A stretch of 64,000 nucleotides of DNA, from positions 1-64,000 of the forward strand of contig JANLSU010000067.1 in NCBI GenBank assembly GCA_031362565.1. The letters are read 5' to 3'. Origin of the DNA: a bacterium. GTDB taxonomy: Bacteria > Krumholzibacteriota > Krumholzibacteriia > G020349025. The position numbers were made by a program, and so were the translations under genes. The notes beneath the pieces are model-generated. The model searched no databases, had not been told where the DNA came from, and worked only from the letters and a program-made list of their open reading frames with translations. Below are positions 1 to 22,197 of the stretch, in pieces; position 1 is the stretch's first letter; each line of letters starts with the position of its first letter.

Positions 1-1153
1 GGGCAAGCCACATTCCGACCGCCATGCCGGACTTCGACACCGGATCGCGGTGAATGCGCTCGTTAATACCGGAATCGAGGTGGGTCACCGCGATCCCGTA
101 GACGGCGGCTGCGAGCGTGAACGGCACGGCAAACGAGCGCAGGTGTTCCAGTCGTTGCATCGAGAGCGCGGCCATCAAGCAGAGAAGCGGCAGAATCGGC
201 GCAAAGAACCGGAACGCGGGCATGCTGTCGCCGCCGACGAGGACCACGTACAGCATGTATGCACCGCAGAGGAGTGGTAGAACACGGCCACCCGAGTCGC
301 GCTGGGCCCAGCGGCCTCGCACGAGAACTGCGACGGTGGGAAGAAGCACCAGCGCCGCCGGGATCAGGAAGCGCAAGGTGTACACGGCGCCGTTTTCGAT
401 CTGCAGCGCCGTCCCGCCGACCTTGGCGTAGAAGGTGTTCGGCAGCGGATAGCCGTAATACGAGAGCCGCCAGAGGAAGTGCGGCAACACGATCGCGGTG
501 AATGCGGCGAGGGCGACACTGGTTCGAGCCGGGGTGCGGCGCCACGTGCACAGCGTGAGATCGAGCGCCAGCACGCCGAAGACGAGCAAGCCTTCGGGGC
601 GCGCCAGAACCAGCAGGCCTCCGAGGAGGACCGGGCCGAGCAGGCCGCTACTCAGCGCGAGCCCGCCCGCCGGCGCCGGCTCGGGCGCCCGCGAGAGGCG
701 AGCGTGCAGCAGCATGCACGTCGCCACGAGGAAAGCAAAGAGCGCGACGTCCATGCCGGTCAGCGACCACGCTGTGAACACGCCGCACGTGCCAAGGAGC
801 AACGCGGCCAAGCGCGTGGTGCGGGCCTCGGCGCCTGGAATCCATCGATGTGCGAGTGCCACCGCGACGAGTGTTGCCGCCGCGAACCCGAACCCCAACA
901 CGCGCGCCAGTATCACGGTGTCCGCACCGAGCTTGCGCCCGAGTGCCAACACCGCGACCCACAGGAACGACGTGTAGCCCTCGACGTGCTCGCCGGCGTT
1001 GTACACCGGGCCGACTCCGGCGGCGAAGTTGTCGGCATAGCGGAAGAAAATGAACGCGTCGTCCAGCATCCAGCCGGAAATCCTCCAGGCGTGCGCTGCC
1101 ATGGCGAGCAAGCCTGCCGGCAGCGCCCACCGCGCGCGTTCGAGAAGAGACAT
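1..1153 (-). CDS. Polytopic membrane glycosyltransferase-like protein (GT-C fold-like), 3' end runs off the window
   Basis: Translated by hand from ATG at 1153: [65 protein letters not shown]...[19 protein letters not shown]. Absent from the ORF track because it has no stop in the window. Paralog of 28120-29844. Confidence 0.8.
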
Positions 1154-6200: not shown

Positions 6201-6799
6201 GGCGGTTGCATCCGGCAATCTGCGCGTTCACGTCGGAACTGTTCTATGAGGATCGACTGAAGCCAATTGCGGGACTCGAGCGGCAGGCGATCACGGGTCC
6301 AACGCGGTTCGCGGGGACGGGACTGTGGTTCGAGCCGGTTGAGCACGAGGGCAACCAGAGTTCGGCGCCGGAAGAGGTCGAACGCGTCGCCGAGATCGTG
6401 GGGGAGCTGACGCGTGGTGGCGTGCAGTGGGTCGATCGGCATGGCGTGGCGCGTTCGCTGACGCTCGAGGAGATCTTGATCGTCGCCCCATACAACGCCC
6501 AGGTGGCCGACTTGGAATCGCGCCTGCCGGGCGCCCAGGTTGGAACGGTCGACAAATTCCAAGGCCGGGAAGCCCCGGTCGTCATTTACTCGATGGCCAC
6601 GTCCAATCCGGAGGACGCCCCGCGGGGGATGGAATTCCTGTACAGCCTGAACCGGCTGAATGTGGCGACGTCGCGGGCCCGGTGCGCCGCCATCCTGGTC
6701 GCCAGCCCGCGGCTCTTCGACCCGGAGTGCCGGTCGCCGCGGCAGATGCAGCTCGCGAATGCGTACTGCCGGTACTTGGAACTCGCCCGGGTGGTGTGA
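3299..6799 (+). CDS. TM0106-family RecB-like nuclease fused to RNase H-like domain and SF1 (DNA2/NAM7-like) helicase
   Basis: SATDL...GC start; PD-(D/E)xK-like GRADIL...VVDTKL, QLCLY; CDICRWWSQC; LFFDVEG; Walker A QGPPGAGKT; DEAGQ; GDPQQL; GTVDKFQGRE; RLNVATSRA. ATG at 3299 preferred over the ORF-track start 3143. Confidence 0.85.
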   Translation: MRLDGSQLTVSATDLANHLGCRHLSTLDRAEAEHRIRSPVFNDPALAVLIQRGFEHERAYLEYLGSLGLGVERIEKDDVASGVTGGADRTAAAMRAGRDLIVQAQLTSGRWHGRADILRRVAHPSALGAWSYEVVDTKLARETRAGTILQLCLYSEVVAELQGELPVAMHVVSPAREDIHAPTPAPAVGTGGFGVESFRVHDYLAYYRLVKSRLQVAVDRAVDDAAAVTYPDPVPQCDICRWWSQCDRRRRNDDHLSLVAGITRLQRRELQHWDVDTLARLAVLPVPLEHAPRRGTPESYVRVREQARVQYEGREKSAPIHELLPREPGFGFARLPEPSPGDLFFDVEGDPFVGTAGLEYLLGCVEVLAEGGGLRYEGRWAFDAAGERAAFEGFIDDVMARWARDPGLHIYHFTPYDPSALKRLMGRYATRVDEMDRMLRAGVFVDLHAIVRQALRASVEQYSLKGLEAFYGYVRATPLTDAALHKRALEQALELAFRTDVTEIMQRVVQDYNREDCESTLRLRNWLEALRAECVAAGETIDRPAVKAGDASDKVKEDVERRRALAARLLEGVPDDAAARTPEQQALWILAQLLEYHDREAKVVWWEFFRLRDLAPEDLVGERSGLGGLEFVEDRGPEKRSRVHRYRFPRQVTDLRPGKKLCSGDAFGTSEETNNKVGEVHAIDLHAGTIDIKKAAKAVGVHPKSVFEFSEVSAEALAESLFRLSEWVAENGIDGDGLYRAGRDLLLRRPPRLEREVGRLQRDGEATLDAARRLAGELAGGVLPIQGPPGAGKTYTGARMIVDLVRQGRRVGITAVSHKVIRNLLDEVVAAAQTEKMDVQCAQKIRKGDPVIEAPHIRQLTESEDILADLQTGAAQVAAGTAWLWATPEFVGSIDVLFVDEAGQMALAPVLSAAPAARNIVLLGDPQQLEQPQKGSHPEGTEVSALEHLLGGGQTIESDRGLFLGETWRLHPAICAFTSELFYEDRLKPIAGLERQAITGPTRFAGTGLWFEPVEHEGNQSSAPEEVERVAEIVGELTRGGVQWVDRHGVARSLTLEEILIVAPYNAQVADLESRLPGAQVGTVDKFQGREAPVVIYSMATSNPEDAPRGMEFLYSLNRLNVATSRARCAAILVASPRLFDPECRSPRQMQLANAYCRYLELARVV

Positions 6800-7052
6800 G
6801 GCCCCGGGCGTGCCGAGGTAACACCGAGGCCCAGCCGCGCCACGCCCGCGCCGCGCGCCGATCCGCCGAGACTTTTCTCCCCGTCAACGAAGATGACACT
6901 TCGCCATCAACATCCTGGACAAAACGAGGGCGCTCAACCGTGGCACGCGCGCCTGCGGCGTCGCCGCGCGATGACTCTCCACATTCGTAGCAGTAGTGGA
7001 ATCAAGCCAATTGGCGATCACTGCCGAATCCAGCGCGTGCGGCTCAAATGTC

Positions 7053-7068
7053 AGGCACGGTTTGCGCA
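7053..7068 (+). promoter_or_regulatory. Candidate sigma-54 (-24/-12) promoter
   Basis: AGGCACGGTTTGCGCA: GG-N10-GC spacing with a GGCACG -24 box, about 125 nt upstream of ATG 7192. The -12 box (GCGCA) departs from TTGCA. Confidence 0.4.
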
Positions 7069-7191
7069 GTCCCGCATGACTCAGTCCGAAGACGGTTGCG
7101 AGATTCGAGGATGGGCGCGGAGGAGTGATGCGTGCTCCCCGTCCCCCGACCCGCACCGGCGCGCAAGAAAATAGACAGATGGAGGTCGACC

Positions 7192-7548
7192 ATGAAGCGA
7201 CTCATTCACCTCAGCGCATGCGTGTTGCTGGCAACGAGTGTCGTGTCAACGCAGGCCCGTGCGAATCCGAGCGTATTCGACACGCCACATGCCGGCGGCT
7301 CGGGACCCGGCGATGATGACATTCCGCTGGTAGGTTCACCGGGTACGCCCGTCGCGATCACCATCGCTCATCGCGTGGATCGGCAGGCGCCGCCGACCAG
7401 GCAAACGGTCGAAATGCCGCAGGAACCAGTGCAGTCGAGTTTCGTGGTTGTCGTCGCTGGGTGGTTCGAAGTTCTCCGGCATTGTTTCCGATTCATCAAT
7501 CCTGCCACCGCGAACGTGGGCGACGACGCAGCCTCAAGGCCGAGATGA
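7192..7548 (+). CDS. Small secreted protein 1 (PGDDDxPL motif family), 118 aa
   Basis: GGAGG RBS at 7181; Sec signal MKRLIHLSACVLLATSVVSTQARA; motif FDTPHAGGSGPGDDDIPL; C-terminal SSFVVVVAGWFEVLR. Confidence 0.8.
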   Translation: MKRLIHLSACVLLATSVVSTQARANPSVFDTPHAGGSGPGDDDIPLVGSPGTPVAITIAHRVDRQAPPTRQTVEMPQEPVQSSFVVVVAGWFEVLRHCFRFINPATANVGDDAASRPR

Positions 7549-7640
7549 GAAGCATGCCGCCGGCCGCGCACGCATTCGTGACCGAGCAGAAGAACCGACT
7601 ACATCCGGCGCTTTCATGCGTCATAGTTAGTCCGGGAAGG

Positions 7641-7973
7641 ATGTCTCGATTGGTTCTAGTCACCGCCTGCGCCCTGTTGGCGATCGGGGTTCTGCCAGTA
7701 AGCGCGTCAACGATTCCGAAGGAATTTGACGCTCCCAATGAGAGCGGTTCTGCTCCCGGCGACGACGACGACCCCTTGTCGCTCGGTTTGCCGGATGCGC
7801 CCGACGCGATCACCTCGACTCGACGCGTTGAGCCGCAGTCGATTGCGAACGAAGCCTTTGAAGGAGTGCCGCGCTTGTCAGTTCGGTCCAGTTTCGCGGC
7901 GGCGGTTGCCTGGTGGTTTGATGTCCTCCGCCAAGGGCGCCCGAAGAATCGCCGGGTGGACCAGGCGAAGTGA
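7641..7973 (+). CDS. Small secreted protein 2 (PGDDDxPL motif family), 110 aa
   Basis: Signal MSRLVLVTACALLAIGVLPVSA; motif FDAPNESGSAPGDDDDPL; C-terminal SSFAAAVAWWFDVLR; aligns along its length with protein 1. Start codon less certain. Confidence 0.75.
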   Translation: MSRLVLVTACALLAIGVLPVSASTIPKEFDAPNESGSAPGDDDDPLSLGLPDAPDAITSTRRVEPQSIANEAFEGVPRLSVRSSFAAAVAWWFDVLRQGRPKNRRVDQAK

Positions 7974-8106
7974 CTCATCGCCCGTTCCCGCTTTGACTGA
8001 GGGGGAGAATGCTGGCGGGGCGCCACCCGTCCCGCCAGCTCCGCGTCCGGCCGGCGCACGGGGTGCGCCGCTCGCGGATCCGCAGTCCCGCCGCTGCCCG
8101 ACGGCC

Positions 8107-8136
8107 TTGACCCGACCCATGCCTCAGGTGTAAAAC
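8107..8136 (+). promoter_or_regulatory. Candidate sigma-70 promoter for small protein 3 and the activator
   Basis: TTGACC-N18-TAAAAC. Confidence 0.3.
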
Positions 8137-8239
8137 CAAACCACCTCTGCTAGATTGCCGGGCGGCGCAGCCGTCCCGACCTGTTTTTGTTGGGTTGGCC
8201 TTGGGTGGTCGTGCGGTGGACGCACGGGAGGTAGGTTTC

Positions 8240-8581
8240 ATGAAACGGTTCATTCTGCTCGTCCTTTGCGCCCTGCTGCTCGGAGCGGTCGCTCCGGTGC
8301 GCGGGTGGGCGGGTCGGCTGGAATATGACATTCCGCCGGGACAGAGCTCCGCGCCTGGGGATGATGACACGCCTTTGCCGCTGCGCGCGCCAGATGACGA
8401 GGTTGTTCGCGTCGGCCATCCACGCAATGCCCCGGCCGGAAGCCACACTGCCGGTCCTCGTGAACAGCCAGCGATTCGAGCGTTCTGGACGGACCACATT
8501 AGTGGTGTTCAGATTGAAAACGTGCTCAGGTTTTGGCGCCACGTGTTCGATAAACAGCAGATCCGCATTCCGAAGGGTTAG
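8240..8581 (+). CDS. Small secreted protein 3 (PGDDDxPL motif family), 113 aa
   Basis: GGAGGT RBS at 8227; signal MKRFILLVLCALLLGAVAPVRGWA; motif YDIPPGQSSAPGDDDTPL; Trp-rich C-terminus VLRFWRHVF. Confidence 0.8.
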   Translation: MKRFILLVLCALLLGAVAPVRGWAGRLEYDIPPGQSSAPGDDDTPLPLRAPDDEVVRVGHPRNAPAGSHTAGPREQPAIRAFWTDHISGVQIENVLRFWRHVFDKQQIRIPKG

Positions 8582-8587
8582 GCCAGC

Positions 8588-10951
8588 ATGGTGCGGTCAC
8601 GACAGCAATTGGCCATTGCTAGGCTGAGCGAACAAATAAAATGCGAGTCCTATCGGGACGCGCTGCGCCGCGCTCGCCGCCTTGTTCGGTGGGGGAACCT
8701 GCTGCCATCCGAACAATTTGAAGTGATCTGCCTTGAGACGGAAATCCTGGCACGCCTGGGGGACGCTTCCTCTGCGGCGGCCAACCTCTCAAACCTGAGG
8801 CATCGCGCGTCCTCGCCGCGCGAGCATATTCGGCTGCGGTTCGTAGAGGGACTGACCGCGGTGACGACGGGCAGCGCGCGCAACGCGTCATCGGCCGCGG
8901 TAGATGTGATCCAGCGGCTGAACTCAGACACCGGAGTCGATCCGCTCTCTGTGGCCGCACGCAACGTCCTCGGGGTTGCTTTGTATCGAATGGGGCGTTA
9001 CCGCTGGGCTAGGTCGGCATTCGAGGACTGCGCGGCCTTCTATAGATTGAAGCGCGATCACGCTGCACTCGCTGAGGTCCTGATAAACATCTCGCTCGTG
9101 GTCAAGAACTCGGGTCGCATCGATTTGGCGTTGGATATGATCGACGAGGCAACTCGCTTGTTGCCCGGCCCCGGTTATGGACGCGCGTGGACCGCTGCGT
9201 TTGTGACCCGGGCGATTTGCTTGTTACGTCTCGGTCGTATTGACGCAGCGCTTGCGTCTCTTTTGCAAGCGCGACAAGTCGCGAGGGTCCAGCGGGTCTT
9301 TACGATCGCGGTCAGTAACAACCTTGGTCACGTCTATCGCATGCGAGGCGCCTATCCGGTTGCGGTAGAGTTCTATTCGGAAGCACTCCAGTGCGCTCGC
9401 ACGGAGGGCGCCGTACGTAGCGAGTGCCTCGCGATGGAGTTCCTGGCGGAAACCGCTTACGAGAGTGGCTCTCCTGGCGAAGCAGTCCGATTGCTGGACG
9501 AAGCGCTGGCGCTTGCCGAGCGGGTTTCGGGCGCCGCAGACCTCGCGATGGAAGTCCTGCGCCGCCGCGGCGAGGCGCATCTGGCGCTGGGACATCAAGC
9601 TGAGGGGCGCGCCGATCTCGAGCGGGCGATGCGCATGTGCAAAGCGCGCGGCGAGCGCCGAGAGGGGATCCTCACGGAACGCGCCTTCCATTTCGCCTTC
9701 GCGCCGGCGGCCGAACTGCCCTCGAAGATTCGTGGGGTGCTCGAGAGCCTGCGCGATATCGACGACCGTTTCGAATACGTCCGGACCGTTTGCTTTGCGC
9801 TCGAACGCGGCTTCCGGCTCGAGGATCACGAGTGGTTTCACGACGCATACGTCGCTGCAGCGCATTATGTGTCGACCTCGGGCCTCGCGTTTTGGCGCAA
9901 GCGGCTTGAGCAGGCGGCGGGCTACCGCACGGCTCTCACGCCGAAGCAGTCCGCGGCGGCGAACGACAAACTCACACCGTCGGACGCACCCGTGCCGACG
10001 ACCTCGCGCAGCCTGCGCTACCTCCGCACTCTGGAAGCGACGCGGGTCGCGGCGCGCAGCAGCGAACCGGCGCTCGTCTTGGGCGAGACGGGAACCGGCA
10101 AGGAAGTGATCTCTCGTCTCGTGCACGGTTGGAGTACTCGCTCGGCGAAGCCACTCATCGCGGTCAATTGCGGTGCCATCCCCGAGAACCTCATCGAAAG
10201 CGAGATCTTCGGCCACACGCGCGGCGCGTTTACGGGTGCGAGCAAGGAGCGCATGGGACTCTTCGAGGCGGCGAGCGGCGGTTCGGTGCTGCTCGACGAA
10301 ATCGGCGATCTACCCATGCAGATGCAAGTCAAACTGCTACGCTTCCTCGACAACTATGAAGTGCGGCGCATCGGTGCGCACACGACTCGCCGTGTCGATG
10401 TCCGGGTCATCGCAGCCACGAATCGCGATCTGCGGCAGCTCGTCGCGGACGGACGATTCCGCAGCGACCTTTTCTTTCGGCTCAACGTTTTCCGGATCGA
10501 AATCCCGGCCCTGCGCGAGCGCCGCGAGGACATTCCCGACTTGGTTTACCACTACCTGCACGACGGTGCACATTCGGGCCTGCCGATCCAGGTCGCCGAT
10601 GATCTCATGCAGTGGTTCCAGAATTTCGATTGGCCGGGCAACATTCGGGAACTCCGCAACCTATGCCGTTATCTGAGCGCGCACGCTTGGGGAAAACCGC
10701 AAATCCAAGTTGCGGACTTGCCGGAGGACTTTCTCAACCGCGCTGCGCTGGCGACTGGCGAAGTGACCGAGTTCGAGCGCGAAAACACCGAACTGCAGCG
10801 CGAACAAATCGAACGCGCGCTGCACCAAACGGGTGGCACCATTATCGCGGCGGCGCGCCTTCTCCACCTGGGCCGCAATAGCCTGTCCCGTAAGATGCGC
10901 GAATTTGGTATCGACCGCGAAGACTTCAAGAACACGCCGACGCCGCGCTGA
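8588..10951 (+). CDS. Sigma-54-dependent enhancer-binding protein with N-terminal TPR domain and Fis-type HTH
   Basis: About 440 aa of TPR-like helical repeats (NVLGVALYRMGRY..A, NNLGHVYRMRGAY..A); Walker A GETGTGKE; intact GAFTGA; LLDEIGD; FRSDLFFRL; WPGNIREL; HTH AARLLHLGRNSLSRKM. Confidence 0.92.
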   Translation: MVRSRQQLAIARLSEQIKCESYRDALRRARRLVRWGNLLPSEQFEVICLETEILARLGDASSAAANLSNLRHRASSPREHIRLRFVEGLTAVTTGSARNASSAAVDVIQRLNSDTGVDPLSVAARNVLGVALYRMGRYRWARSAFEDCAAFYRLKRDHAALAEVLINISLVVKNSGRIDLALDMIDEATRLLPGPGYGRAWTAAFVTRAICLLRLGRIDAALASLLQARQVARVQRVFTIAVSNNLGHVYRMRGAYPVAVEFYSEALQCARTEGAVRSECLAMEFLAETAYESGSPGEAVRLLDEALALAERVSGAADLAMEVLRRRGEAHLALGHQAEGRADLERAMRMCKARGERREGILTERAFHFAFAPAAELPSKIRGVLESLRDIDDRFEYVRTVCFALERGFRLEDHEWFHDAYVAAAHYVSTSGLAFWRKRLEQAAGYRTALTPKQSAAANDKLTPSDAPVPTTSRSLRYLRTLEATRVAARSSEPALVLGETGTGKEVISRLVHGWSTRSAKPLIAVNCGAIPENLIESEIFGHTRGAFTGASKERMGLFEAASGGSVLLDEIGDLPMQMQVKLLRFLDNYEVRRIGAHTTRRVDVRVIAATNRDLRQLVADGRFRSDLFFRLNVFRIEIPALRERREDIPDLVYHYLHDGAHSGLPIQVADDLMQWFQNFDWPGNIRELRNLCRYLSAHAWGKPQIQVADLPEDFLNRAALATGEVTEFERENTELQREQIERALHQTGGTIIAAARLLHLGRNSLSRKMREFGIDREDFKNTPTPR

Positions 10952-11041
10952 GTTGTCGCGAACCTCGATCCGCCACCGCACCCCGTCTCTCTCTTCTGTC
11001 CAGACTGTGCAACCCCGCCGTCCGCGCGCCTCTGCCGTTGC

Positions 11042-11070
11042 TTGACGCAACCCACTCGCAGCCCTACGGT
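11042..11070 (+). promoter_or_regulatory. Sigma-70 promoter upstream of yqeY
   Basis: TTGACG-N17-TACGGT. Confidence 0.45.
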
Positions 11071-11109
11071 TCTCCGCTGCAAGGCCCATGTGGCCGCGAG
11101 GAGGGTTTG

Positions 11110-11565
11110 ATGTCCGATCTCGTCACACGCCTGAACGACGACTTGAAGACCGCACTCAAAGCGCGCGACGAGTTTCGCCTGGGTGTCATTCGCATGTTGG
11201 TCGCCAAGGTCAAGGATCTGCAGATTCACCAGGGCCGCAGCGAGCCGCTCACGGAAGCGCAGGTCATTCAAGTTCTCGCGAGCTACGCCAAGCAACGCGC
11301 CGATGCGGCGGAGACATTCGCGCAGGCCGGCCGCTTGGATGTCCGCGACCGGGAGCTGCAGGAACGCGAGATCGTGCTGAGTTATTTGCCGAAGCAGTTG
11401 GACGACGACGCGGTGCGCACCGTCGTGCGCGAGATCATCGCCAGCGTCGGCGCGACCTCAGCGAAGGACATCGGCAAGGTCATGGGACCGGCAATCGGCC
11501 GGCTGAAGGGGCAAGTGGACGGCGGACGCGTACAGCAAATCGCCAAGGAACTTCTCGGCGGTTGA
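11110..11565 (+). CDS. yqeY: GatB/YqeY domain protein
   Basis: DLKTALKARD...IRML, YLPKQL, KDIGKVMG, GQVDG; RBS GGAGG. Confidence 0.9.
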   Translation: MSDLVTRLNDDLKTALKARDEFRLGVIRMLVAKVKDLQIHQGRSEPLTEAQVIQVLASYAKQRADAAETFAQAGRLDVRDRELQEREIVLSYLPKQLDDDAVRTVVREIIASVGATSAKDIGKVMGPAIGRLKGQVDGGRVQQIAKELLGG

Positions 11566-11593
11566 GCGCGCGGCGTCGGCGGGGGTGTGGACG

Positions 11594-12196
11594 ATGGGTT
11601 GGGTCGACATCGGGATCGTCGCAGTGCTTCTGGGCTGCGCCATCTTTGGATACAAGCGCGGACTCGTGCGCCAAATGGTGGAACTGATCGGCCTCACGAC
11701 CGGGGTTTTGCTAGCCCTCTACTTGACCGGTGGACTGGTCGCCAACTACGCCAAGCCGCTGGCCGCCTACCGCATCACATATCCTGTAGTATTCCTGACC
11801 ATCGTCGCCGTGACGCTCCTGGTCGCGGAGGTCATCGGGAAGGTTGCCGGCGAAGTCGCGCAGGTGACGTTCTTCGGCATGTTCGATCAAATGGGCGGCG
11901 CGATCGCCGGGCTGGGCAAAGGTACCCTGTGGCTCGCTATCATCATCACGATCGCTTTCCACCTGAACCTCGGGCAGAAAGTCGATGACAACTTGCGGCG
12001 ATCGAATCTCGCGGGCCCGATCTCGGGCATCCTTCCGGCCGCGTTCCAGGTGGTCAAGAACTACGCGCATGATGCGCCACTTCGCGAGCCATTCAACATC
12101 GAACGCCGCTTGGCTTCTGCCAAGTCCGCAGCCGCGAAAATTGCGACTGGCAAGCCGACTTCGAACCGCTCTGCGAAGGACAAGTCCGACAACTGA
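11594..12196 (+). CDS. cvpA: CvpA family membrane protein
   Basis: WVDI...GYKRGLV, DQMGGAIAGLGKG; usual position before mutS2. Confidence 0.85.
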   Translation: MGWVDIGIVAVLLGCAIFGYKRGLVRQMVELIGLTTGVLLALYLTGGLVANYAKPLAAYRITYPVVFLTIVAVTLLVAEVIGKVAGEVAQVTFFGMFDQMGGAIAGLGKGTLWLAIIITIAFHLNLGQKVDDNLRRSNLAGPISGILPAAFQVVKNYAHDAPLREPFNIERRLASAKSAAAKIATGKPTSNRSAKDKSDN

Positions 12197-14734: not shown

Positions 14735-14769
14735 ACGGACCCGGACCGCAGACTACAGTCCGGGCCCGT
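14735..14769 (+). terminator. Stem-loop after mutS2 (possible terminator)
   Basis: ACGGACCCGGAC...GTCCGGGCCCGT imperfect inverted repeat; weak U tract. Confidence 0.3.
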
Positions 14770-14952
14770 TGTCGATGCCGTTGCCGTCGCGGTGTCGACG
14801 TCGTTGTCGGTCGCGCTGCCAACGCGCGAGGCCGGCCGCGCCGCGCCGCGCCCGCTCTGGCCGGCGGGCGCCCGCGATCGGACGACGCCATCCTGGCCGC
14901 CGCGGCCCTGTGCACTTGAGTTCAGATTGCGAACCTTTTTTAACAGACACTA

Positions 14953-14981
14953 TTGACAACGCGTGTCGGGTGTCGTATGCT
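14953..14981 (+). promoter_or_regulatory. Sigma-70 promoter of the HNH gene
   Basis: TTGACA-N17-TATGCT, near consensus. Confidence 0.6.
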
Positions 14982-15041
14982 TCCTGCGTACGAATCGCTT
15001 CGCTGTTCCCCCGCGCGATTCGGCCTCCCAAAGTGATCGAA

Positions 15042-17261
15042 ATGACCTCGATGTGCGGCGTTCCACATGTCGAAGGGAGACGCGTGTCAACGCGAAGCGC
15101 GAGCGCTGCATTTGCTGCGGCGCCTGGCACCGCTGTACGTCCGCGGCCTCATCTCGGCCTGGCGTCGGTCGGAACACCGGCCGCGACGCGACCTTGGGAT
15201 GCGGTCGAAGCGGATCGTACGCTGCGTATGCTGCGGGCCCGTTTGGGGCCGCTGTCTGCGGAATTGGCGGAGGCGGCGCACGCCGCAGCCGTAGCACAAG
15301 TCTGGGCGCCACTTGGATTCGCGCGTGCGAGTGACTTCGTGCGTGAGACCTGGGGCCGTTCGCCGCGGTGGTTTTCGGATCTGGCCGCCTTGGGTGAAGC
15401 CATGGGCCGGTCGCCTGCACTGCGCGCTGCTGTGGCGGGTAACGACGGTGCGCGGCCGCTTGGGCGCGTTGCGGCCTTGGAACTCGCCCGAAATGTTGTT
15501 GCGGCGAATGCTGATGATACCGCGCAGGTCGAGTCCGAGTGGATCGCCTTGGCGCGCACGGTCACTGTTCGCGAACTCAGGAAACATCTTCGGGAAATCC
15601 GCAACCGGGACGGTTCCCGGTGCGAACTCGAGAACGCGGAAGAAGCGGCTGCTGTAGCGGTCGCGGTGCGTTTGGGAGCACCGCGCAATGTCGCGGCGGC
15701 CTTCGAAGACACGTTGGATCTACACCGCGCAGTCAACGGTTACACCGCAAGTACGGAATCGTTTCTCGAGGCCCTCGCGGCCGAAGCTGTGGCGGGTCCG
15801 CGCCCGCCGGATGCGAGCTGCGAACCGCTGCAACGGCGCACGACACGGGCGCCAATCGAAGAAGCCTTCGACCGATTGCGCGCCGGGAGGGCCGGCGCAG
15901 ACGTTTTCGAACCAGCCTCGAGCGATCCTTCCGTCCTGGATTCCGCCGACGCGTCTCACACGCATGGCGCCGACCCGCCTGATCGGGGTGCCGCAGAAAG
16001 TCTCGATGCATTCGGCTCCACGGAATCCCGTGCCAACCCGTCCATCGGCGCGCTTCTGGATGTACCCACCCCCGATGTGGGTTCCATCGAGTCCAGCGCA
16101 GACGTTTTCCAAGGGCAAACAGAATCCGAGCGGCGCGCTTGGGCCGCCGCCCAACGCCTGGCGGGGTTGGTTGGCGCCGAAGAAGAGGTCGAGAAGCGCA
16201 TCGGACGCTTGCTCTATGAAATGAATCAGCGCGGTGTGTGGAAGGCGCTGGGTTTCGCATCGCTCGGCCACTATGCGGTCGAGGTGCTCGGGATGGCGCG
16301 CCGCACCGCAGAGTCTCGGGCCGGAATCCTGCGCGCCGGCCGCGCCGTACCCGCAGTTTTGGCGTCCTACGAAACGGGTGCGTTCGGTCTCGAAGCGGCC
16401 TGGCTCGTGCGCCGGATTCTGACCTCGGTGACGTTGCCGATCGACCGCGAAGTGCAAGATCGTTGGATCGAACATGCGCAGGCGGCCACCATCAAACGTC
16501 TGCGACACGAGCTGCGCCGGATTCACCTGCGCGCGATCGAGGATCCATTCAATGATAGTGTGCCGTGGCCGGCCACAGACGCGGAATGGTTCGAGTCCTT
16601 GCGGCGTGAACCGGGAATGACCCGCGAGCGGCTGCGTACGCTGGAGACCGCGGCGATGGACTGCGATACACCCAGCCGGGACCTCGACTCGAGCGCAGAC
16701 GTTTTCCTTCGATTTCGTGTGGCACCCGAAATCGCGACATCGTTCTTGGCGGCGGTTGAGTCGGCCCGTCGCCATGCCGCGACAAGCGCGAGCGAAATCG
16801 CGCCGACGACCGGTGCACCCGCCTCGGTGCGCGCCGCGCGAATGTTCTTAGATCGTGAACGGCAGCCGCCCGCGTGGGTCGGGCTCCTCGCATTGCTCGA
16901 GGACTACGCCGAAACGCACGACGACCCGCGGGCGTTTCCCAAGCGCCAGTGGGACGCGATCTATTCACGCGATGGGTGGCAATGCATGGCGCCCGGTTGC
17001 ACCAGCCGGTGTCGAATGGACGATCACCACATCGTGTATCGCGCTGATCGTGGCAGCAACGAGCCCGCGAATCAGATCACCCTGTGCCGTTTCCATCACC
17101 AACGAGGGGAACATGGACGATATGCGCGCGTTCGGGGAACCGCGCCTCTGGGTCTTGTGTGGCGGCTCGGAACCCGCGCACTCGCGACCTACTATCAGAA
17201 TGAACGGCGCCGGGCGCTGGGCTTGCGACACACCGCACCGGGCCTGGGTGGTGGGCGTTGA
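15042..17261 (+). CDS. Large HNH endonuclease-signature protein (DUF222/13E12-like architecture)
   Basis: C-terminal RDGWQCMAPGC...DDHHIVYR..RGSNEPANQITLCRFHH; duplicated N-terminal module (WAPLGFARASDFVRE / WKALGFASLGHYAVE). Start taken downstream of the promoter; uncertain. Confidence 0.75.
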   Translation: MTSMCGVPHVEGRRVSTRSASAAFAAAPGTAVRPRPHLGLASVGTPAATRPWDAVEADRTLRMLRARLGPLSAELAEAAHAAAVAQVWAPLGFARASDFVRETWGRSPRWFSDLAALGEAMGRSPALRAAVAGNDGARPLGRVAALELARNVVAANADDTAQVESEWIALARTVTVRELRKHLREIRNRDGSRCELENAEEAAAVAVAVRLGAPRNVAAAFEDTLDLHRAVNGYTASTESFLEALAAEAVAGPRPPDASCEPLQRRTTRAPIEEAFDRLRAGRAGADVFEPASSDPSVLDSADASHTHGADPPDRGAAESLDAFGSTESRANPSIGALLDVPTPDVGSIESSADVFQGQTESERRAWAAAQRLAGLVGAEEEVEKRIGRLLYEMNQRGVWKALGFASLGHYAVEVLGMARRTAESRAGILRAGRAVPAVLASYETGAFGLEAAWLVRRILTSVTLPIDREVQDRWIEHAQAATIKRLRHELRRIHLRAIEDPFNDSVPWPATDAEWFESLRREPGMTRERLRTLETAAMDCDTPSRDLDSSADVFLRFRVAPEIATSFLAAVESARRHAATSASEIAPTTGAPASVRAARMFLDRERQPPAWVGLLALLEDYAETHDDPRAFPKRQWDAIYSRDGWQCMAPGCTSRCRMDDHHIVYRADRGSNEPANQITLCRFHHQRGEHGRYARVRGTAPLGLVWRLGTRALATYYQNERRRALGLRHTAPGLGGGR
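15895..16706 (+). repeat. Three exact dispersed copies of the 14-mer GCGCAGACGTTTTC
   Basis: At 15895-15908, 16096-16109 and 16693-16706, all in the same frame (ADVF). Confidence 0.85.
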
Positions 17262-17472
17262 ATTGCGCTCGCAGGCTGCAGCGATGACGCGATTTGGGGC
17301 GCTCTGGCAGGCAGCCAAGCGTGGGTACAGCTCCTGGGCGCGGGAGGGTATATTGCGAATAGAAGTCTGAGTGGTGGCGGGCTGGCTGGATCGTGCCCGT
17401 GGCCGCTGCCGCCGGCGGCTGCCTGTGCCCGAGTCGCCGCTCGACCGCACGAATTTGGCGAGGAGTCTTCGC

Positions 17473-19275
17473 ATGGACCGCACCAGTGGCCGCAGCCCCG
17501 ACGACGTCGTCGAGCGCGTCCGCGAAGCCACCGACGTCGTGCAGCTCGTCGGCCAATACGTAAACCTGAAGCGTTCGGGCCGGGGCATGAAGGGCCTCTG
17601 CCCCTTCCACAACGAGAAGACCCCCAGTTTCATGGTCAATCCGGAGCGGCAGATGTATCACTGCTTCGGATGTCATAAGGGCGGTGACGTTTTCTCGTTT
17701 CTGATGGAACACGACGGGGTGAGCTTCCCCGAGGCCCTGCGCGTGCTGGGGGAGCGGGCTGGGATCGACGTCGAGGTCCGGCGGCCTCGCGACAGCGGCC
17801 AGGATTCGCTTTACGACGGTGCCGAGCGCGCGGCGCGCCATTTCGCCGAGCAGTTGACTCGGCCCGAGGGCGAAGCAGTGCGCCAATACGCCCGCAAACG
17901 TGGCCTGGCGCCGGAGATCGTCGCGCGCTTTCGCCTGGGCGCCGCCCCCAATTCCTGGGAGGACCTGTCGCGAGTCCTGCGCGCCGAAGGGGTGACCGAG
18001 GAGATCCTGCTCGCCCTGGGGCTTATTGCCCGGCGCGCCAGCGGCCCCGGGAGCTACGACGTGTTTCGCAACCGGCTCATCATCCCCATCGTCTCGCTCT
18101 CCGGCCGGGTGGTGGGCTTCGGGGGCCGTGCCTTGCCGAATCCCGAGGGCGAACAGGGGCCCAAGTACCTGAACAGCCCCGATTCGCCCATCTACCACAA
18201 GGGCCACCTGTTATACGGCATGGCCGAGGCGCGGGCGGCGATCCGGCGGCACGACGCCGTGCTCCTGACCGAGGGCTACCTGGACTGCCTCAGCCTGGTC
18301 CAGGCCGGGATCGAACACGTCGTTGCCGCCTGTGGAACGGCGTTTACACCGCAACAAGCTGCTCTCTTGCACCGTTATACGCGTCGGGCGTATATACTTG
18401 GAGACAGTGATCCGGCGGGCCGCCGGGCGGCGGTACGCACCGCGGGGCTTCTTCTCGAACACGGATTCCTGGTCTACCTGGTCGAGCTGCCGAGCGGCTA
18501 CGACCCCGATTCATTTATCCGCGAGCATGGTGCCCCGGCGCTGGAGACCCGCATTCGAGAAGCCCCGAGCTATGTCGCCAGTATGAAGCTCCTCGTCGAC
18601 CGTCGGGCCGGCGACATGGCAGTCAAGGAACGCGTCGTGCGGCACCTGTTGGATGATTTATCACGGGTGTCGGACCCGTTGCTCCAGGAGTTGTACGGCA
18701 AGGACATGGGCCGCACCTTCGGGTTGTCCGAAGGCGCGATTGCCGCGGCCCTCGAGCAGCGACGCGGGCGTGGCCGGATGCCGCGCCCTGCTGCCATGCC
18801 GGTTGGTGCAGCGGGGGTGCATGGAACGCAGTCGGGGGCGTTGGTCGAAGCGCAACAAGGGCTGTTGCGGCTCGCGCTCTTGGGACCCATGTGGGTGGAA
18901 CGGGCCGCTGAACTGCTCGGCCCCGAGGACTTCGACGCGGGACCGCCGCGTCATTTGTTCGAAGCGCTCCGTGAGCACACGGGGGCGACGGTAGGGGGCG
19001 GTTGGTTCGATCGGCTGGAGGCCGACGAAGACCGCTCGTTCGCGACGGAACTCGCGCTTGGTGACGCCCCGGTGGGTGAACCCGAGCGTTTGTTCAACGA
19101 CTATGTCTCGGCTCTGAAGAGCGCTCGACTCGAGGCCGCCGAACACGATTTACAGCAGCGCTTGGCCGACGCCGAACGGCGCGGCGACCAGGATGAACAG
19201 GCAAGGCTGCTTGAGGAACAACGTGGACTCGCGCTCGATCGCAGCGCGTGGAAGAGACGGGCCGCGTGGAATTGA
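17473..19275 (+). CDS. dnaG: DNA primase
   Basis: [11 protein letters not shown] zinc finger; CFGC; PKYLNSP; Toprim EGYLD, DSDPAG, DPD; AGGAG RBS. Confidence 0.97.
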
Positions 19276-19316
19276 AAAGAAGGCCGGCGGCGAAGGTGAC
19301 GAAAGGGGATGTCGCT

Positions 19317-21059
19317 TTGAGCGACCCGAAACTGATCAAGATCATCGACCAGTTGAAACGCCGCAATCACGACCGTGGTTACGTCTTGCACGATGACATC
19401 AACGAACTGATCGACGACGATTTCGATCTGGAAGGCCTGGACTCCATCTACGGTGAGCTCACCAAGCTCAACATCTCGTTCTACGACTCGGAAGAAGTCG
19501 CGCGCGAGAAGATGAAGCTGCAGGACAAGCGCCGCGAGAAACAGAAAAAAGAGCAGGCAGTTCGCGCCACCATCAAGTACGACGACCCGATTCGCATGTA
19601 CTTGCGGGAAATGGGCCGCGTGCCGCTCCTGGACCGCCAGGGCGAAGTCGAGATCGCCAAGCGCATCGAAAGCGGCCAGCACCAGGTGCTCGAAACGGTG
19701 TTCGCCACCGAGGCCTCGCTCTCCAAGTTGCGCGAGCTGGTCAAGCAACTCGAGAACGAAGAGATGCGCATCGACGAGTTCCTACAGCTCGAGATTCGCA
19801 ACGCCACGACGCCCGGCTCGATCAAAAAAGAAGTCATGCGGCTCAACCGGCAGATCAAGAAGATCGAACAGGTGCGCGAGGAGCTGGCCGACCTCAAAAA
19901 GAAGTTCGGGACGCGCGACTACAACGACAAGAAGAAAGTCGTCGACAAGTCCATCCTGATGCGCGAGCAAAAGCTGCAGCACGAAATTCACGATCTGAAG
20001 CTGCATCCGAACCAGATCGAAGCCTTGGTCCAGAACCTGTACGACATCCTGGAGCGCATCGAGGGCGCCGAGAAAGACGTCAAGACGCTGGAAGGCGAAT
20101 ACGGCATCGAGGTCACCAAGGCGAACGAAGCTTTGGCCGAGATGCGCAAACGCAACACGCGGTCCTTCAAGCACAAGAACCGCATGTACAGCAAGGAAGT
20201 CCTGCAAAGCTTCCAGAAGCGCGTCAAGGATTGCCGCAAGGCTATCGAGATCGTGGAAGTCGACGCCGGCATCACCGGCGAACGCTTGCGCACGCTGTTG
20301 CGCACCATTGCCATCGGCCAAGTGCGCGTGCAACAGGCGAAGAAGGAGATGATCGAGGCCAACGTGCGCCTCGTGATCTCGATCGCCAAGCGCTACACCA
20401 ACCGCGGCCTCGAATTCCTGGATTTGATCCAGGAGGGCAACTCGGGCCTCATGCGCGCCGTCGACAAGTTCGACTATCGCAAGGGCTACAAGTTTTCGAC
20501 CTACGCCACGTGGTGGATTCGCCAAGCCATCACCCGCGCCATTGCCGATCAGGCGCGCACGATCCGCGTGCCGGTGCACATGATCGAGGCCATCAACAAG
20601 GTGGCGCGGGCGTCGCGCGCCCTGGTGCAGGAATACGGCCGCGAGCCGACGCCCGAAGAAGTGGCGAAGAAGCTCATCATGCCGGTCGACAAGGTGAAGT
20701 CGGTCATGAAGGCGAGCCTCGAGCCGATTTCGCTCGACCGCCCGATCGGCGAGGACGAGGACAGCAACCTGGGCGATTTCATCGAGGACACCTCGGCGGA
20801 TTCGCCGGCCTCGTCGGCAGCGCACGCCATGCTGCAGGACCAAATGTCCAAGGTCCTCTCGACGCTGACGCGCCGTGAGGAAAAAGTGATCCGGCTGCGC
20901 TTCGGCCTGGGCGACGGCACGCCGCGGACACTCGAGGAAGTGGGCTCGATCTTCCAGGTGACCCGCGAGCGCGTCCGCCAGATCGAAGCCAAGGCGCTCC
21001 GGAAGCTGCAACACCCGAGCCGGGCCCGCAAACTGCGCGGCTATACGGACAGCGTTTAG
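19317..21059 (+). CDS. rpoD: RNA polymerase primary sigma factor
   Basis: [69 protein letters not shown] start inferred from RBS AAGGGG. Confidence 0.97.
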
Positions 21060-21315: not shown

Positions 21316-21392
21316 GGGCGAATAGCTCAGTTGGACAGAGCGCTCGCCTCACACGCGAGAGGTCACAGGTTCGACCCCTGTTTCGCCCACCA
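21316..21392 (+). tRNA. tRNA-Val (CAC)
   Basis: GGGCGAA/TTCGCCC acceptor; CTCGC-CTCACAC-GCGAG anticodon arm; encoded CCA. Confidence 0.93.
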
Positions 21393-21483
21393 CACCGCGG
21401 CCCGGTTCACGCCGGGCCGCGTTTGTTTCGGCCGTTTTCCACCCCGCTGGTGCGATCGTCCCCCACGTGGTAGCTTGCAACCG

Positions 21484-22197
21484 ATGGCAGATCAACAACA
21501 GACACTCGTCGAACTGGCGCGCGAAGACGCGCGACTCTTCCAAATCAAACAATTGCTTGCCAACCTGCCGCGGCGCATTCAGGAACTGGGCAAGGAGCGG
21601 CTGACGCTCGAGTTGCAAGGCCGCGAGGCCGAGGGCCGTTGGCAAAACGCCGAATCCGCCCGCCGCAAGCTCGAGAACGAACTGAGCGAGGCGCGCGCCA
21701 AAAAAGCCAAGAGCGAGTCGCGCCTGGGCGCCATCACCAGCACCGACCAGTATCAAGCGCTGACCAAGGAAATCATCACCATGGGCGAGCGCATCGACGC
21801 CCTGGAGTCCTCCGTGCTCGAAGCACTCGAACGCAGCGAAGAAACCGAGCGCTCGCGGGATGCCGAAAAAGCGCGTGTCGACCAAGGCATGGCGGCGCTC
21901 GACGCACAAAGGGTGACGCTCGAAGGTGACCTGGCCCGCGCCCGTGCCAATCTCGAAGAGCAAACGCGCAAGCGCGAAGCCGCCCTCGTCAACATGTCGG
22001 GCCCGCTGCGCTCGATCTATGACCGCATCCTGAAATCCAAGGGTGACGCCGCCCTCGCTATCGTCAACGGCCAGACGTGCGGTATCTGCAAGGGCGTGCA
22101 ACCACCGCATATCGTGCAGCAACTGCGCGCCGCCAGCGGCGTCCACCACTGCCAAATGTGCGGCCGCATTCTGGTCTGGGACTCCGCGTTCGTATGA
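21484..22197 (+). CDS. Coiled-coil protein with C4-type zinc ribbon (DUF164-like)
   Basis: Long coiled coil; CGIC...CQMCGRIL; usual neighbour of rnhA and rnpB. Confidence 0.88.
   Translation: MADQQQTLVELAREDARLFQIKQLLANLPRRIQELGKERLTLELQGREAEGRWQNAESARRKLENELSEARAKKAKSESRLGAITSTDQYQALTKEIITMGERIDALESSVLEALERSEETERSRDAEKARVDQGMAALDAQRVTLEGDLARARANLEEQTRKREAALVNMSGPLRSIYDRILKSKGDAALAIVNGQTCGICKGVQPPHIVQQLRAASGVHHCQMCGRILVWDSAFV

Follow-up and report, generated by a model that had tools for sequence, protein, structure and literature searches.

The 64,000-nucleotide (nt) stretch analysed here, referred to below as the window, comprises positions 1 to 64,000 of contig JANLSU010000067.1 (assembly GCA_031362565.1) and comes from a bacterium of the uncultured diderm phylum Krumholzibacteriota. 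Within it, three small genes, called here sp1, sp2 and sp3, are followed by an open reading frame (ORF) for a 787-amino-acid (aa) protein, in which N-terminal tetratricopeptide repeats (TPRs) are joined to the core of a bacterial enhancer-binding protein (bEBP), an activator of sigma-54 transcription. An earlier reading of the DNA (the original prediction) had proposed that these genes form a peptide-signalling system. As described below, the small gene and the TPR activator are a real, conserved and unpublished two-gene module.

Each of the three small proteins has an MKR or MSR n-region, a hydrophobic core and an AxA-type end, followed by the sequence PGDDDxPL at residues 39-46, with GDDDxP lying about 15 residues past the predicted cleavage site. 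From these features, the small proteins look Sec-exported. The genes are co-oriented paralogues (the sp2 and sp3 products are 45% and 33% identical to that of sp1), and the GC content of their second codon positions (0.48-0.53) shows a dip of the coding type compared with the adjoining spacers (0.65-0.67). The original prediction of three co-oriented genes with Sec-type signal peptides and a common motif was thus borne out, as was the distance of 6 nt between the end of sp3 and the start of the activator ORF; sp3 is also the copy whose position is conserved in other genomes. The products had been described as pro-peptides; sp1-sp3 encode proteins of about 110 aa and not short peptides.

The start of sp2 can be read in two ways. 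An in-frame upstream ATG at 7545 overlaps the stop codon of sp1 (ATGA, 7545-7548), and the public gene call P0001 starts there, yielding a protein of 142 aa. The family alignment favours the start at 7641, and a Shine-Dalgarno-like GGAAGG directly abuts that ATG.

Pfam analysis of the 787-aa protein revealed TPR_12 (82 bits, three stretches), TPR_2 and TPR_10 repeats, a Sigma54_activat domain (PF00158, 215 bits, residues 478-638), AAA_lid_14 and a Fis-type helix-turn-helix (HTH) domain, HTH_8. The GETGTGKE (Walker A) and GAFTGA motifs are intact in the translation. No receiver, GAF or PAS domain was matched by Pfam; TPR_MalT scored 33 bits, under its 45-bit cut-off, and all NCBIfam equivalog scores were under their cut-offs as well. 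Since the protein has an AAA+ sigma-54 interaction domain and a C-terminal HTH, and since the genome contains a sigma-54 gene (a single rpoN, at G000:C38), it qualifies as a bEBP, with the architecture that had been proposed for it.

Conservation of the gene pair

We searched 61 genomes with the TPR part of the activator and inspected all 64 places found, which were distributed over 41 of the genomes (G000 designates the window's own genome; G001, G005, G022 and so on are related genomes, and L-numbers are loci). Four places are cut by contig ends (L013, L016, L081 and L095), leaving 60 informative ones. At 57 of these 60, the activator is directly preceded on its own strand by an ORF of about 95-145 aa whose start resembles a signal peptide, a few to a few tens of bases separating the end of this ORF from the activator start. 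An automatic count gave 48 of 54; at five loci, the frame choice was corrected by hand from the ORF listing. The background of the heuristic used to call signal peptides was 0.17 per 0.6-kb strand window at the same loci. The three misses (L093, L097 and L098) have open frames of 1487-1567 aa with no bEBP motif in the fetched parts and probably represent another TPR family. An acidic Gly/Asp/Pro motif is present in 56 of the 57 small ORFs (L096 lacks it), and all nine partners sent to Pfam consist of TPRs, Sigma54_activat, the AAA lid and HTH_8.

The closest activator orthologues, with 36-40% identity in the TPR part, were found twice in G001 and once in G005; at each of these loci, the gene upstream is small and encodes both a signal peptide and GDDDxP, and the pairing persists down to ca. 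25% TPR identity. The window's own genome has 22 strong Sigma54_activat matches, three of which have TPR N-termini (those in the window, C21 and C97). A GDDDxP small ORF precedes all three TPR-bEBPs and none of the 19 other bEBPs. Likewise, of 4935 heuristic small signal-peptide ORFs in this genome, five carry GDDD.P, and they are exactly the five located ahead of the three TPR activators. Thus, the linkage check set in advance, which asked whether the small genes and the TPR-bEBPs commonly occur apart, did not refute the original prediction. One further bEBP of the same genome (761 aa; G000:C97:45045-45545, plus strand) has a 438-aa N-terminal region unmatched by the TPR query and is not preceded by a small signal-peptide ORF.

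The four orthologous loci all have different genes on their flanks. The window locus lies between an SF1-helicase/RNase H-like gene upstream and yqeY, cvpA and a MutS2-like gene downstream. At G001:C53, a gene for a giant repeat protein is found upstream, and a 170-aa ORF without a Pfam match, followed by a DUF748 gene, downstream; the G001:C17 locus is flanked by M3 peptidase and methyltransferase genes, and at G005:C139, a purple acid phosphatase-like gene lies downstream, the upstream side being cut by the contig end. Since the flanks are not conserved, the conserved unit is the pair of small gene and activator, and in this sense the unit is self-contained, as had been supposed. The additional claim that yqeY has its own promoter received no backing from the promoter scanner, which gave no promoter-like site. 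The cvpA gene ("colicin V production") was considered as a member of the unit and rejected, as flanks vary at all orthologous loci. The repeat protein upstream of the orthologous module at G001:C53 (L029, 7229-11980, minus strand; 1583 aa), which has many APGVLANDSD.DGD-type repeats and a type-IX-secretion-like C-terminal tail, is unrelated to the window's flank.

The small proteins matched no Pfam or NCBIfam model. A profile built from the three sequences of the window retrieved nothing else in its own genome and nothing credible in 60 relatives, and a word-indexed search of 5.8 billion proteins matched only the window's own three small proteins; family relatives were found by reading upstream of activator orthologues. 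With a six-sequence profile, 32 proteins with E <= 0.001 (nine of them with E <= 1e-10) were retrieved from 1.84 billion representatives. All are 99-142 aa long, and the match starts at residues 1-7 except in two proteins with longer called N-termini. Apart from the two G001 loci, scans of metagenomes and genome contigs yielded nothing but AAA+-domain relatives. LptD-fragment clusters, which scored 0.85-0.86 in a protein atlas, under the atlas's line of 0.9, were treated as noise. In an alignment of 31 family members, G-D-D-D-x-P is invariant (31/31) at a mean column identity of about 23%, and the Ala at position -1 of the predicted cleavage site is conserved in at least 90%. A Tat signal was ruled out, since most members begin with MKR and lack RRxFLK, and so was a lipoprotein, since the family does not conserve the Cys at position 10.

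The AF2 model of sp3, made with the family alignment (mean predicted local distance difference test score, pLDDT, 67.9), consists of a helix at residues 2-17, corresponding to the signal peptide region, disorder at 18-89 and a second helix at 90-106. The C-terminal segments of the small proteins are hydrophobic or aromatic, often with basic end residues, and the presence of several paralogous pairs in one genome is reminiscent of ECF sigma/anti-sigma sets. One can imagine that the C-terminal helix anchors the small protein in the membrane, where it would hold the activator until an envelope signal at the acidic motif releases it in an anti-sigma-like manner. The C-terminal helices are, however, amphipathic and not membrane-spanning: their best 19-residue mean hydropathy is 1.46, 0.86 and 0.40 in sp1, sp2 and sp3, respectively, and they contain Asp, Glu and Arg. 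A transmembrane C-terminal anchor was ruled out on these grounds, and we consider such a tether very unlikely.

Table 1. Positions of the genes, domains and candidate signals of the window locus and of the two further small genes in the same genome.
Feature	Contig	Positions	Strand	Description
Candidate sigma-54 -24/-12 element	window	7053-7068	+	AGGCACGGTTTGCGCA; upstream of sp1; 3 mismatches to consensus; weak
sp1	window	7192-7548	+	118 aa; signal peptide (predicted), GDDDIP at 7309-7326, C-terminal helix
sp2	window	7641-7973	+	110 aa; predicted exported small protein, GDDDDP at 7758-7775
GC-rich hairpin	window	8011-8039	+	after sp2; 12-nt arms, 92% complementary, 5-nt loop; followed by a second hairpin
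Sigma-70-like promoter (candidate)	window	8107-8136	+	TTGACC-N18-TAAAAC; before sp3; read from aligned upstream regions
sp3	window	8240-8581	+	113 aa; predicted exported small protein, GDDDTP at 8357-8374
Activator ORF	window	8588-10951	+	787 aa
TPR sensor domain of activator	window	8588-9937	+	residues 1-450; 23-helix superhelix (Pfam, AF2 model)
AAA+ sigma-54 interaction core and lid of activator	window	10019-10747	+	residues 478-720; GETGTGKE, GAFTGA
Fis-type HTH_8 of activator	window	10790-10906	+	residues 735-773 (Pfam)
Small gene	G000:C21	3145-3510	+	PGDDDQPT; upstream of a TPR activator of 775 aa from the first start (786-aa open frame)
Small gene	G000:C97	35671-36000	-	PGDDDMPN; upstream of a TPR activator of 1041 aa in a 1045-aa open frame

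Pfam detected no kinase domain in the locus genes or in eight larger ORFs tested (window 2 to 24862), in agreement with the original prediction that no kinase is nearby. Six of the eight ORFs had matches (a FlgD_ig-domain protein, MutS2, DnaG, RpoD, a CT398-like protein and RecJ). The other two, an 830-aa ORF at 14769-17261 (plus strand) and a 384-aa ORF at 2-1153 (minus strand, cut by the window end), matched no Pfam family at E <= 1e-5. The CT398-like gene (21331-22197, plus strand) codes for a 288-aa protein with a coiled-coil hairpin domain (PF24481, E 2.6e-16) and lies directly 3' of rpoD (19248-21059) and dnaG (17371-19275). CT398/HP0958-type proteins bind sigma-54 in Chlamydia and Helicobacter, and by analogy the protein may be a sigma-54 partner in this sigma-54-rich genome.

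Transcription signals and motif classes

The pattern CCTTGA(C/T)-N17/18-TAnnnT is common to the region upstream of sp3 and to two orthologous loci of G001, and it is from this alignment that the sigma-70-like promoter in Table 1 was read; the promoter scanner did not call the site. The spacer between sp2 and sp3 (7974-8239) folds with z = -2.63, one of 200 shuffles folding as well, and the hairpins that it contains, starting with the one at 8011-8039, probably mark the end of an sp1-sp2 transcription unit. Because of these GC-rich hairpins and the shared promoter before sp3, we infer from the sequence that there are two transcription units, sp1-sp2 and sp3-activator. A look-up of sequencing runs gave no RNA run that contains the locus; the four runs listed are DNA from one freshwater-sediment study, and one of them is probably the source. 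For the spacers at 6800-7191 and 10952-11109, folding did not exceed that of shuffles (z -0.11 and +0.65), and an Rfam search of 6500-11700 returned only two chance miRNA-like rows; neither an Rfam family nor a well-folding spacer adjoins the activator. The spacers upstream of sp1 and sp3 share two direct repeats, 6848-6866/8065-8083 (19 nt, 89% identity) and 7065-7075/8081-8091 (11 nt, 100% identity), which are probably remnants of the duplication behind the extra small-gene copies.

The arrangement of sp3 and the activator brings to mind SecM, VemP and MifM, which are signal-peptide-bearing upstream ORFs. The small ORF has a signal peptide, a length of about 100 aa, a Trp/Arg-rich C-terminus near its stop codon and a position directly upstream of a regulated gene, and it might act as a secretion-monitoring leader whose C-terminal segment stalls the ribosome and tunes activator translation. 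Yet the C-terminus is not conserved in sequence, and it is the N-terminal acidic motif that is invariant; a gap of 4-6 nt is more in keeping with plain translational coupling than with a hairpin opened by stalling, and no regulated gene follows sp1 and sp2. We therefore give a leader-peptide function hardly any credence.

The candidate -24/-12 element upstream of sp1 keeps the GG-N10-GC spacing and is located 123-127 nt before the ATG. In the window as a whole, however, -24/-12-like matches occur at chance frequency (253 vs 246 expected), and of 38 upstream regions of homologous small genes, four have at least 9 of 12 consensus matches, compared with 2.1 in shuffled and five in antisense sequences. 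An inverted- and direct-repeat scan of the locus found no conserved repeats readable as activator binding sites. Thus, sigma-54 feedback on sp1-sp2 through this site, which formed part of the original prediction, is possible but not supported.

Activators of the long class (about 1015-1080 aa) have a second bEBP-like frame on the same strand, ca. 120-160 nt upstream of the small gene (L076, L084, L086, L088, L090, L099-L103, L108, L109 and L111). As fetched, this open frame is about 460-670 aa long and contains GSFTGA or GAFTGA; together with the small gene and the TPR activator it would make a three-gene unit, which is not present at the window locus. A recurrent GG-N10-GC about 210 nt upstream in this class turned out to be the coding sequence for "ALGMQ" in the HTH of the preceding bEBP and was rejected as a promoter element.

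bEBP genes often adjoin their targets, and together with the weak -24/-12-like site upstream of sp1, this could mean that the small proteins belong to the envelope or periplasm and are linked to the activator only through co-expression or as its targets; its TPRs would then sense something else. But at nearly every locus the small gene is upstream of the activator, co-directional with and apparently translationally coupled to it, and not behind a sigma-54 promoter; the pairing has outlived divergence to about 25% TPR identity among unconserved flanks, and both the motif and the C-terminal classes follow the TPR clades. Co-expression without binding is thus, in our view, quite unlikely.

The relation between motif and receptor was examined with a quick tree of 52 TPR domains. 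The window's TPR clade has 100% support, and the long activator class, sampled in six families of the phylum, occupies one side of a branch that also has 100% support, with shorter classes beside it. Motif classes follow the TPR clades with 12 changes, against a shuffled mean of 30.3; none of 200 shuffles gave a number as low. Because neighbouring genes are inherited together, this pattern alone is no proof of co-evolution. Paralogous modules of one lineage share their motif core, and orthologous modules of other lineages carry another. In family f1, GDDDxP is found in all modules, which belong to three TPR clades (five genes in G000, four in G001 and three in G005). GDPxDG is found in both classes of family f2, all four modules of G022 having EGDPxDG, and (D/E)PG(E/D)(D/L)P in families f3 and f7. 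Clade-specific instead are the residues that follow the motif and the C-terminal tails, with ...QPT(I/V), ...TPNRDG, ...GRWHRAP, and Leu-rich and Trp-rich tails.

The idea of the motif as a receptor-specific pheromone code fits poorly with a GDDDxP that recurs throughout one lineage's paralogous modules and gives way to other motifs elsewhere. Since the motif tracks the host lineage across paralogous modules (three in G000, four in G022), it appears to be a tag for shared machinery rather than a receptor-specific code, and would be read by something that the cell's modules have in common; a processing enzyme, uptake system or modification is conceivable. What distinguishes one module from another would then have to be sought outside the motif, the C-terminal helix being one candidate. 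Alternatively, the lineage-wide motif may stem from gene conversion between the paralogous small genes.

Sensor fold and proposed mechanism

Residues 1-470 of the activator were modelled from an alignment of seven sequences. The model (pLDDT 87.9; predicted template modelling score, pTM, 0.82) has 23 helices in residues 1-450 and a disordered linker after them. The sensor includes an NNLGH sequence with invariant Asn residues (N244, N245); in RRNPP receptors, Asn residues bind the peptide backbone. Foldseek ranked LGN/Pins peptide-binding TPRs first and Rap proteins next. When the best Foldseek chains were re-aligned, the top eight were all Rap or NprR (Z scores 27.9-29.3, 336-351 residues aligned), namely Rap of phages phi3T and phi105, RapJ, RapF and NprR (Rap 28.8-29.3, NprR 29.1). 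In an unbiased pass over 48,161 representative chains, peptide-bound Rap (8rte_B) came first, with Z 28.8 and a root-mean-square deviation of 3.3 over 336 of 350 residues, followed by APPBP2 (Z 27.0), APC/C subunits (25.8), LGN and NprR (24.8), and, further down, MalT domain III (24.6), AimR (22.5) and PlcR (19.8). As modelled, the TPR sensor is closest in fold to RRNPP peptide receptors, by a small margin. The modelled fold supports the view that the sensor works like a peptide-binding TPR receptor and leaves homology to the RRNPP family open.

These observations can be combined into an RRNPP-like two-gene circuit, which we hold to be a serious possibility somewhat short of an even chance. 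sp3 and the activator would be co-transcribed from the sigma-70-like promoter and translationally coupled. The small protein would be exported, cut by signal peptidase I and processed further by machinery common to the genome's modules, which would read the lineage-specific acidic motif. A fragment, which could be the roughly 25 conserved residues at the N-terminus or the Trp/Arg-rich C-terminal helix that differs between modules, would return to the cytoplasm and bind in the concave groove of the TPR superhelix, switching AAA+ assembly and thereby sigma-54 transcription of unlinked targets. Since eight OppA/DppA-type (SBP_bac_5) binding proteins are encoded in the genome, an uptake route is available, and nothing more than that. 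The sp1-sp2 unit would raise the signal dosage, possibly under the activator's own control, so that the two extra small-gene copies would amplify the module in this genome.

Several points weigh against this circuit. The fold margin over unrelated TPR proteins is about 2 Z (APPBP2 27.0, APC subunits 25.8), sequence identity to Rap and NprR is 10-12%, and no RRNPP receptor came up in the sequence-profile search, whose matches were limited to bEBP cores and TPRs of the generic, LGN or KLC kind. The signal peptides were called with our own heuristic instead of SignalP. With about 110 and 787 aa, respectively, the small proteins and the receptor are both beyond the RRNPP ranges. A motif invariant across many species is unlike typical strain-specific pheromones, and co-inheritance of neighbours would yield the observed clade-motif pattern without any binding. 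Finally, the host is a diderm, in which a returning peptide must cross two membranes, and the locus has no linked gene for a processing protease or a dedicated transporter.

The two-membrane problem is removed if nothing re-enters the cell. The TPR domain could bind the unexported precursor, through its C-terminal helix or signal peptide, so that the rate of Sec export sets the amount of free activator. Secreted anti-activators and TPR chaperone co-activators of type III secretion (FlgM, ExsE, IpgC-MxiE) provide the model for such export-coupled control. A gene spacing of 4-6 nt suggests stoichiometric co-production; like a typical chaperone client, the small protein lacks order over most of its length and has helices at its ends, and every module clade has its own type of C-terminal tail. 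On the other hand, Sec export is constitutive, which would make parallel modules (those of G000 and G022) redundant as Sec sensors, and both the invariance of an extracytoplasmic acidic motif and its sharing throughout a lineage would be left unexplained. We consider export-coupled control unlikely.

For the RRNPP-like circuit with a returning fragment, the outcome is mixed: the conserved pair, the Sec-type signal peptides and a TPR fold nearest to RRNPP receptors stand, and sigma-54 feedback, the motif code and two of the five features of the RRNPP signature discussed below do not. The analogy with RRNPP systems is a tentative reading, though the best available. A bolder version, which we put forward tentatively and regard as rather doubtful, is that the module is a phylum-wide, multi-copy signalling system of diderm FCB-group bacteria, with RRNPP-like TPR receptors that are fused to sigma-54 activators and may form an outgroup to the RRNPPA receptors of Gram-positive bacteria. 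In this version, the shared machinery would read the acidic tag (GDDDxP in this lineage, GDPxDG or DPGEDP in others), and the module-specific Trp/Arg-rich C-terminal helix would be the ligand.

Comparison with known systems

As given in PMC10075063, the RRNPP signature has five criteria: a propeptide of 10-100 aa that is Sec-secreted, a receptor of 250-500 aa that contains TPRs, and genes that are direct neighbours. Three of the five are found in the module. By rule of thumb (basic n-region, hydrophobic core, AxA end), the propeptide is predicted to be Sec-secreted; the receptor has TPRs (TPR_12 and the 23-helix model); and the genes adjoin, with the 6-nt gap seen here and the same arrangement at 57 of 60 informative loci. 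The two length ranges are exceeded, at 118, 110 and 113 aa for sp1-sp3 (99-142 aa in the family) and 787 aa for the receptor, of which the TPR part alone makes up about 450 aa.

As in the RRNPP(A) pairs Rap-Phr, NprR-NprX, PlcR-PapR and AimR-AimP, a gene for a Sec-type precursor adjoins that of a cytoplasmic TPR receptor, several paralogous pairs occur per genome, and the modelled TPR fold is nearest to Rap and NprR. In contrast to these pairs, the receptor is fused here to a sigma-54 AAA+ activator, the host belongs to a diderm uncultured phylum and not to Bacillota, there is no sequence-level similarity, and what is conserved is an acidic motif close to the N-terminus of the mature protein, common to paralogues. 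In the literature on TPRs combined with sigma-54 or enhancer-binding proteins, and on RRNPP(A) beyond Bacillota, we found no account of the pairing, consistent with the original statement that no system with this combination has been described.

In PMC12700828, the RRNPPA family is placed in Bacillota, their conjugative elements and phages, and an outgroup obtained via remote structural homologues is said to be of help in rooting it; in PMC10075063 and PMC12700828, cytoplasmic TPR receptors paired with secreted precursors are treated as a speciality of Bacillota, phages and plasmids. The same gene logic is now found in an uncultured diderm phylum, with another output (sigma-54), three to four copies per genome and a strictly conserved acidic motif. 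If the pair binds, cytoplasmic TPR sensing of peptides or proteins extends to double-membraned bacteria, bEBPs gain a new class of input, and concrete synthesisable ligands (25-mer and 20-mer peptides) become available in a phylum without cultured members.

With classical bEBPs (NtrC, NifA, PspF, FleQ, ZraR), the activator shares the Sigma54_activat core with GETGTGKE and GAFTGA, the AAA lid and the Fis-type HTH; it differs from them in having an N-terminal TPR superhelix of about 450 aa in place of a receiver, GAF, PAS or V4R domain. MalT, a STAND activator, likewise joins a superhelical TPR-like sensor to a transcription activator driven by an ATPase; its domain III (a SUPR/TPR-like sensor; 1hz4) aligns with the model over 354 residues at Z 24.6. 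MalT, however, has a STAND NTPase, a LuxR HTH and a sigma-70 output, is controlled by maltotriose and cytoplasmic proteins, and has no exported partner gene. In PspF-PspA, NifA-NifL and HrpRS-HrpV, bEBP activity is set by a separately encoded partner, often from the same operon; these partners are cytoplasmic and have no signal peptide, and the activators have no TPR sensor. In the module described here, by contrast, the partner bears a signal peptide and the activator a TPR sensor.

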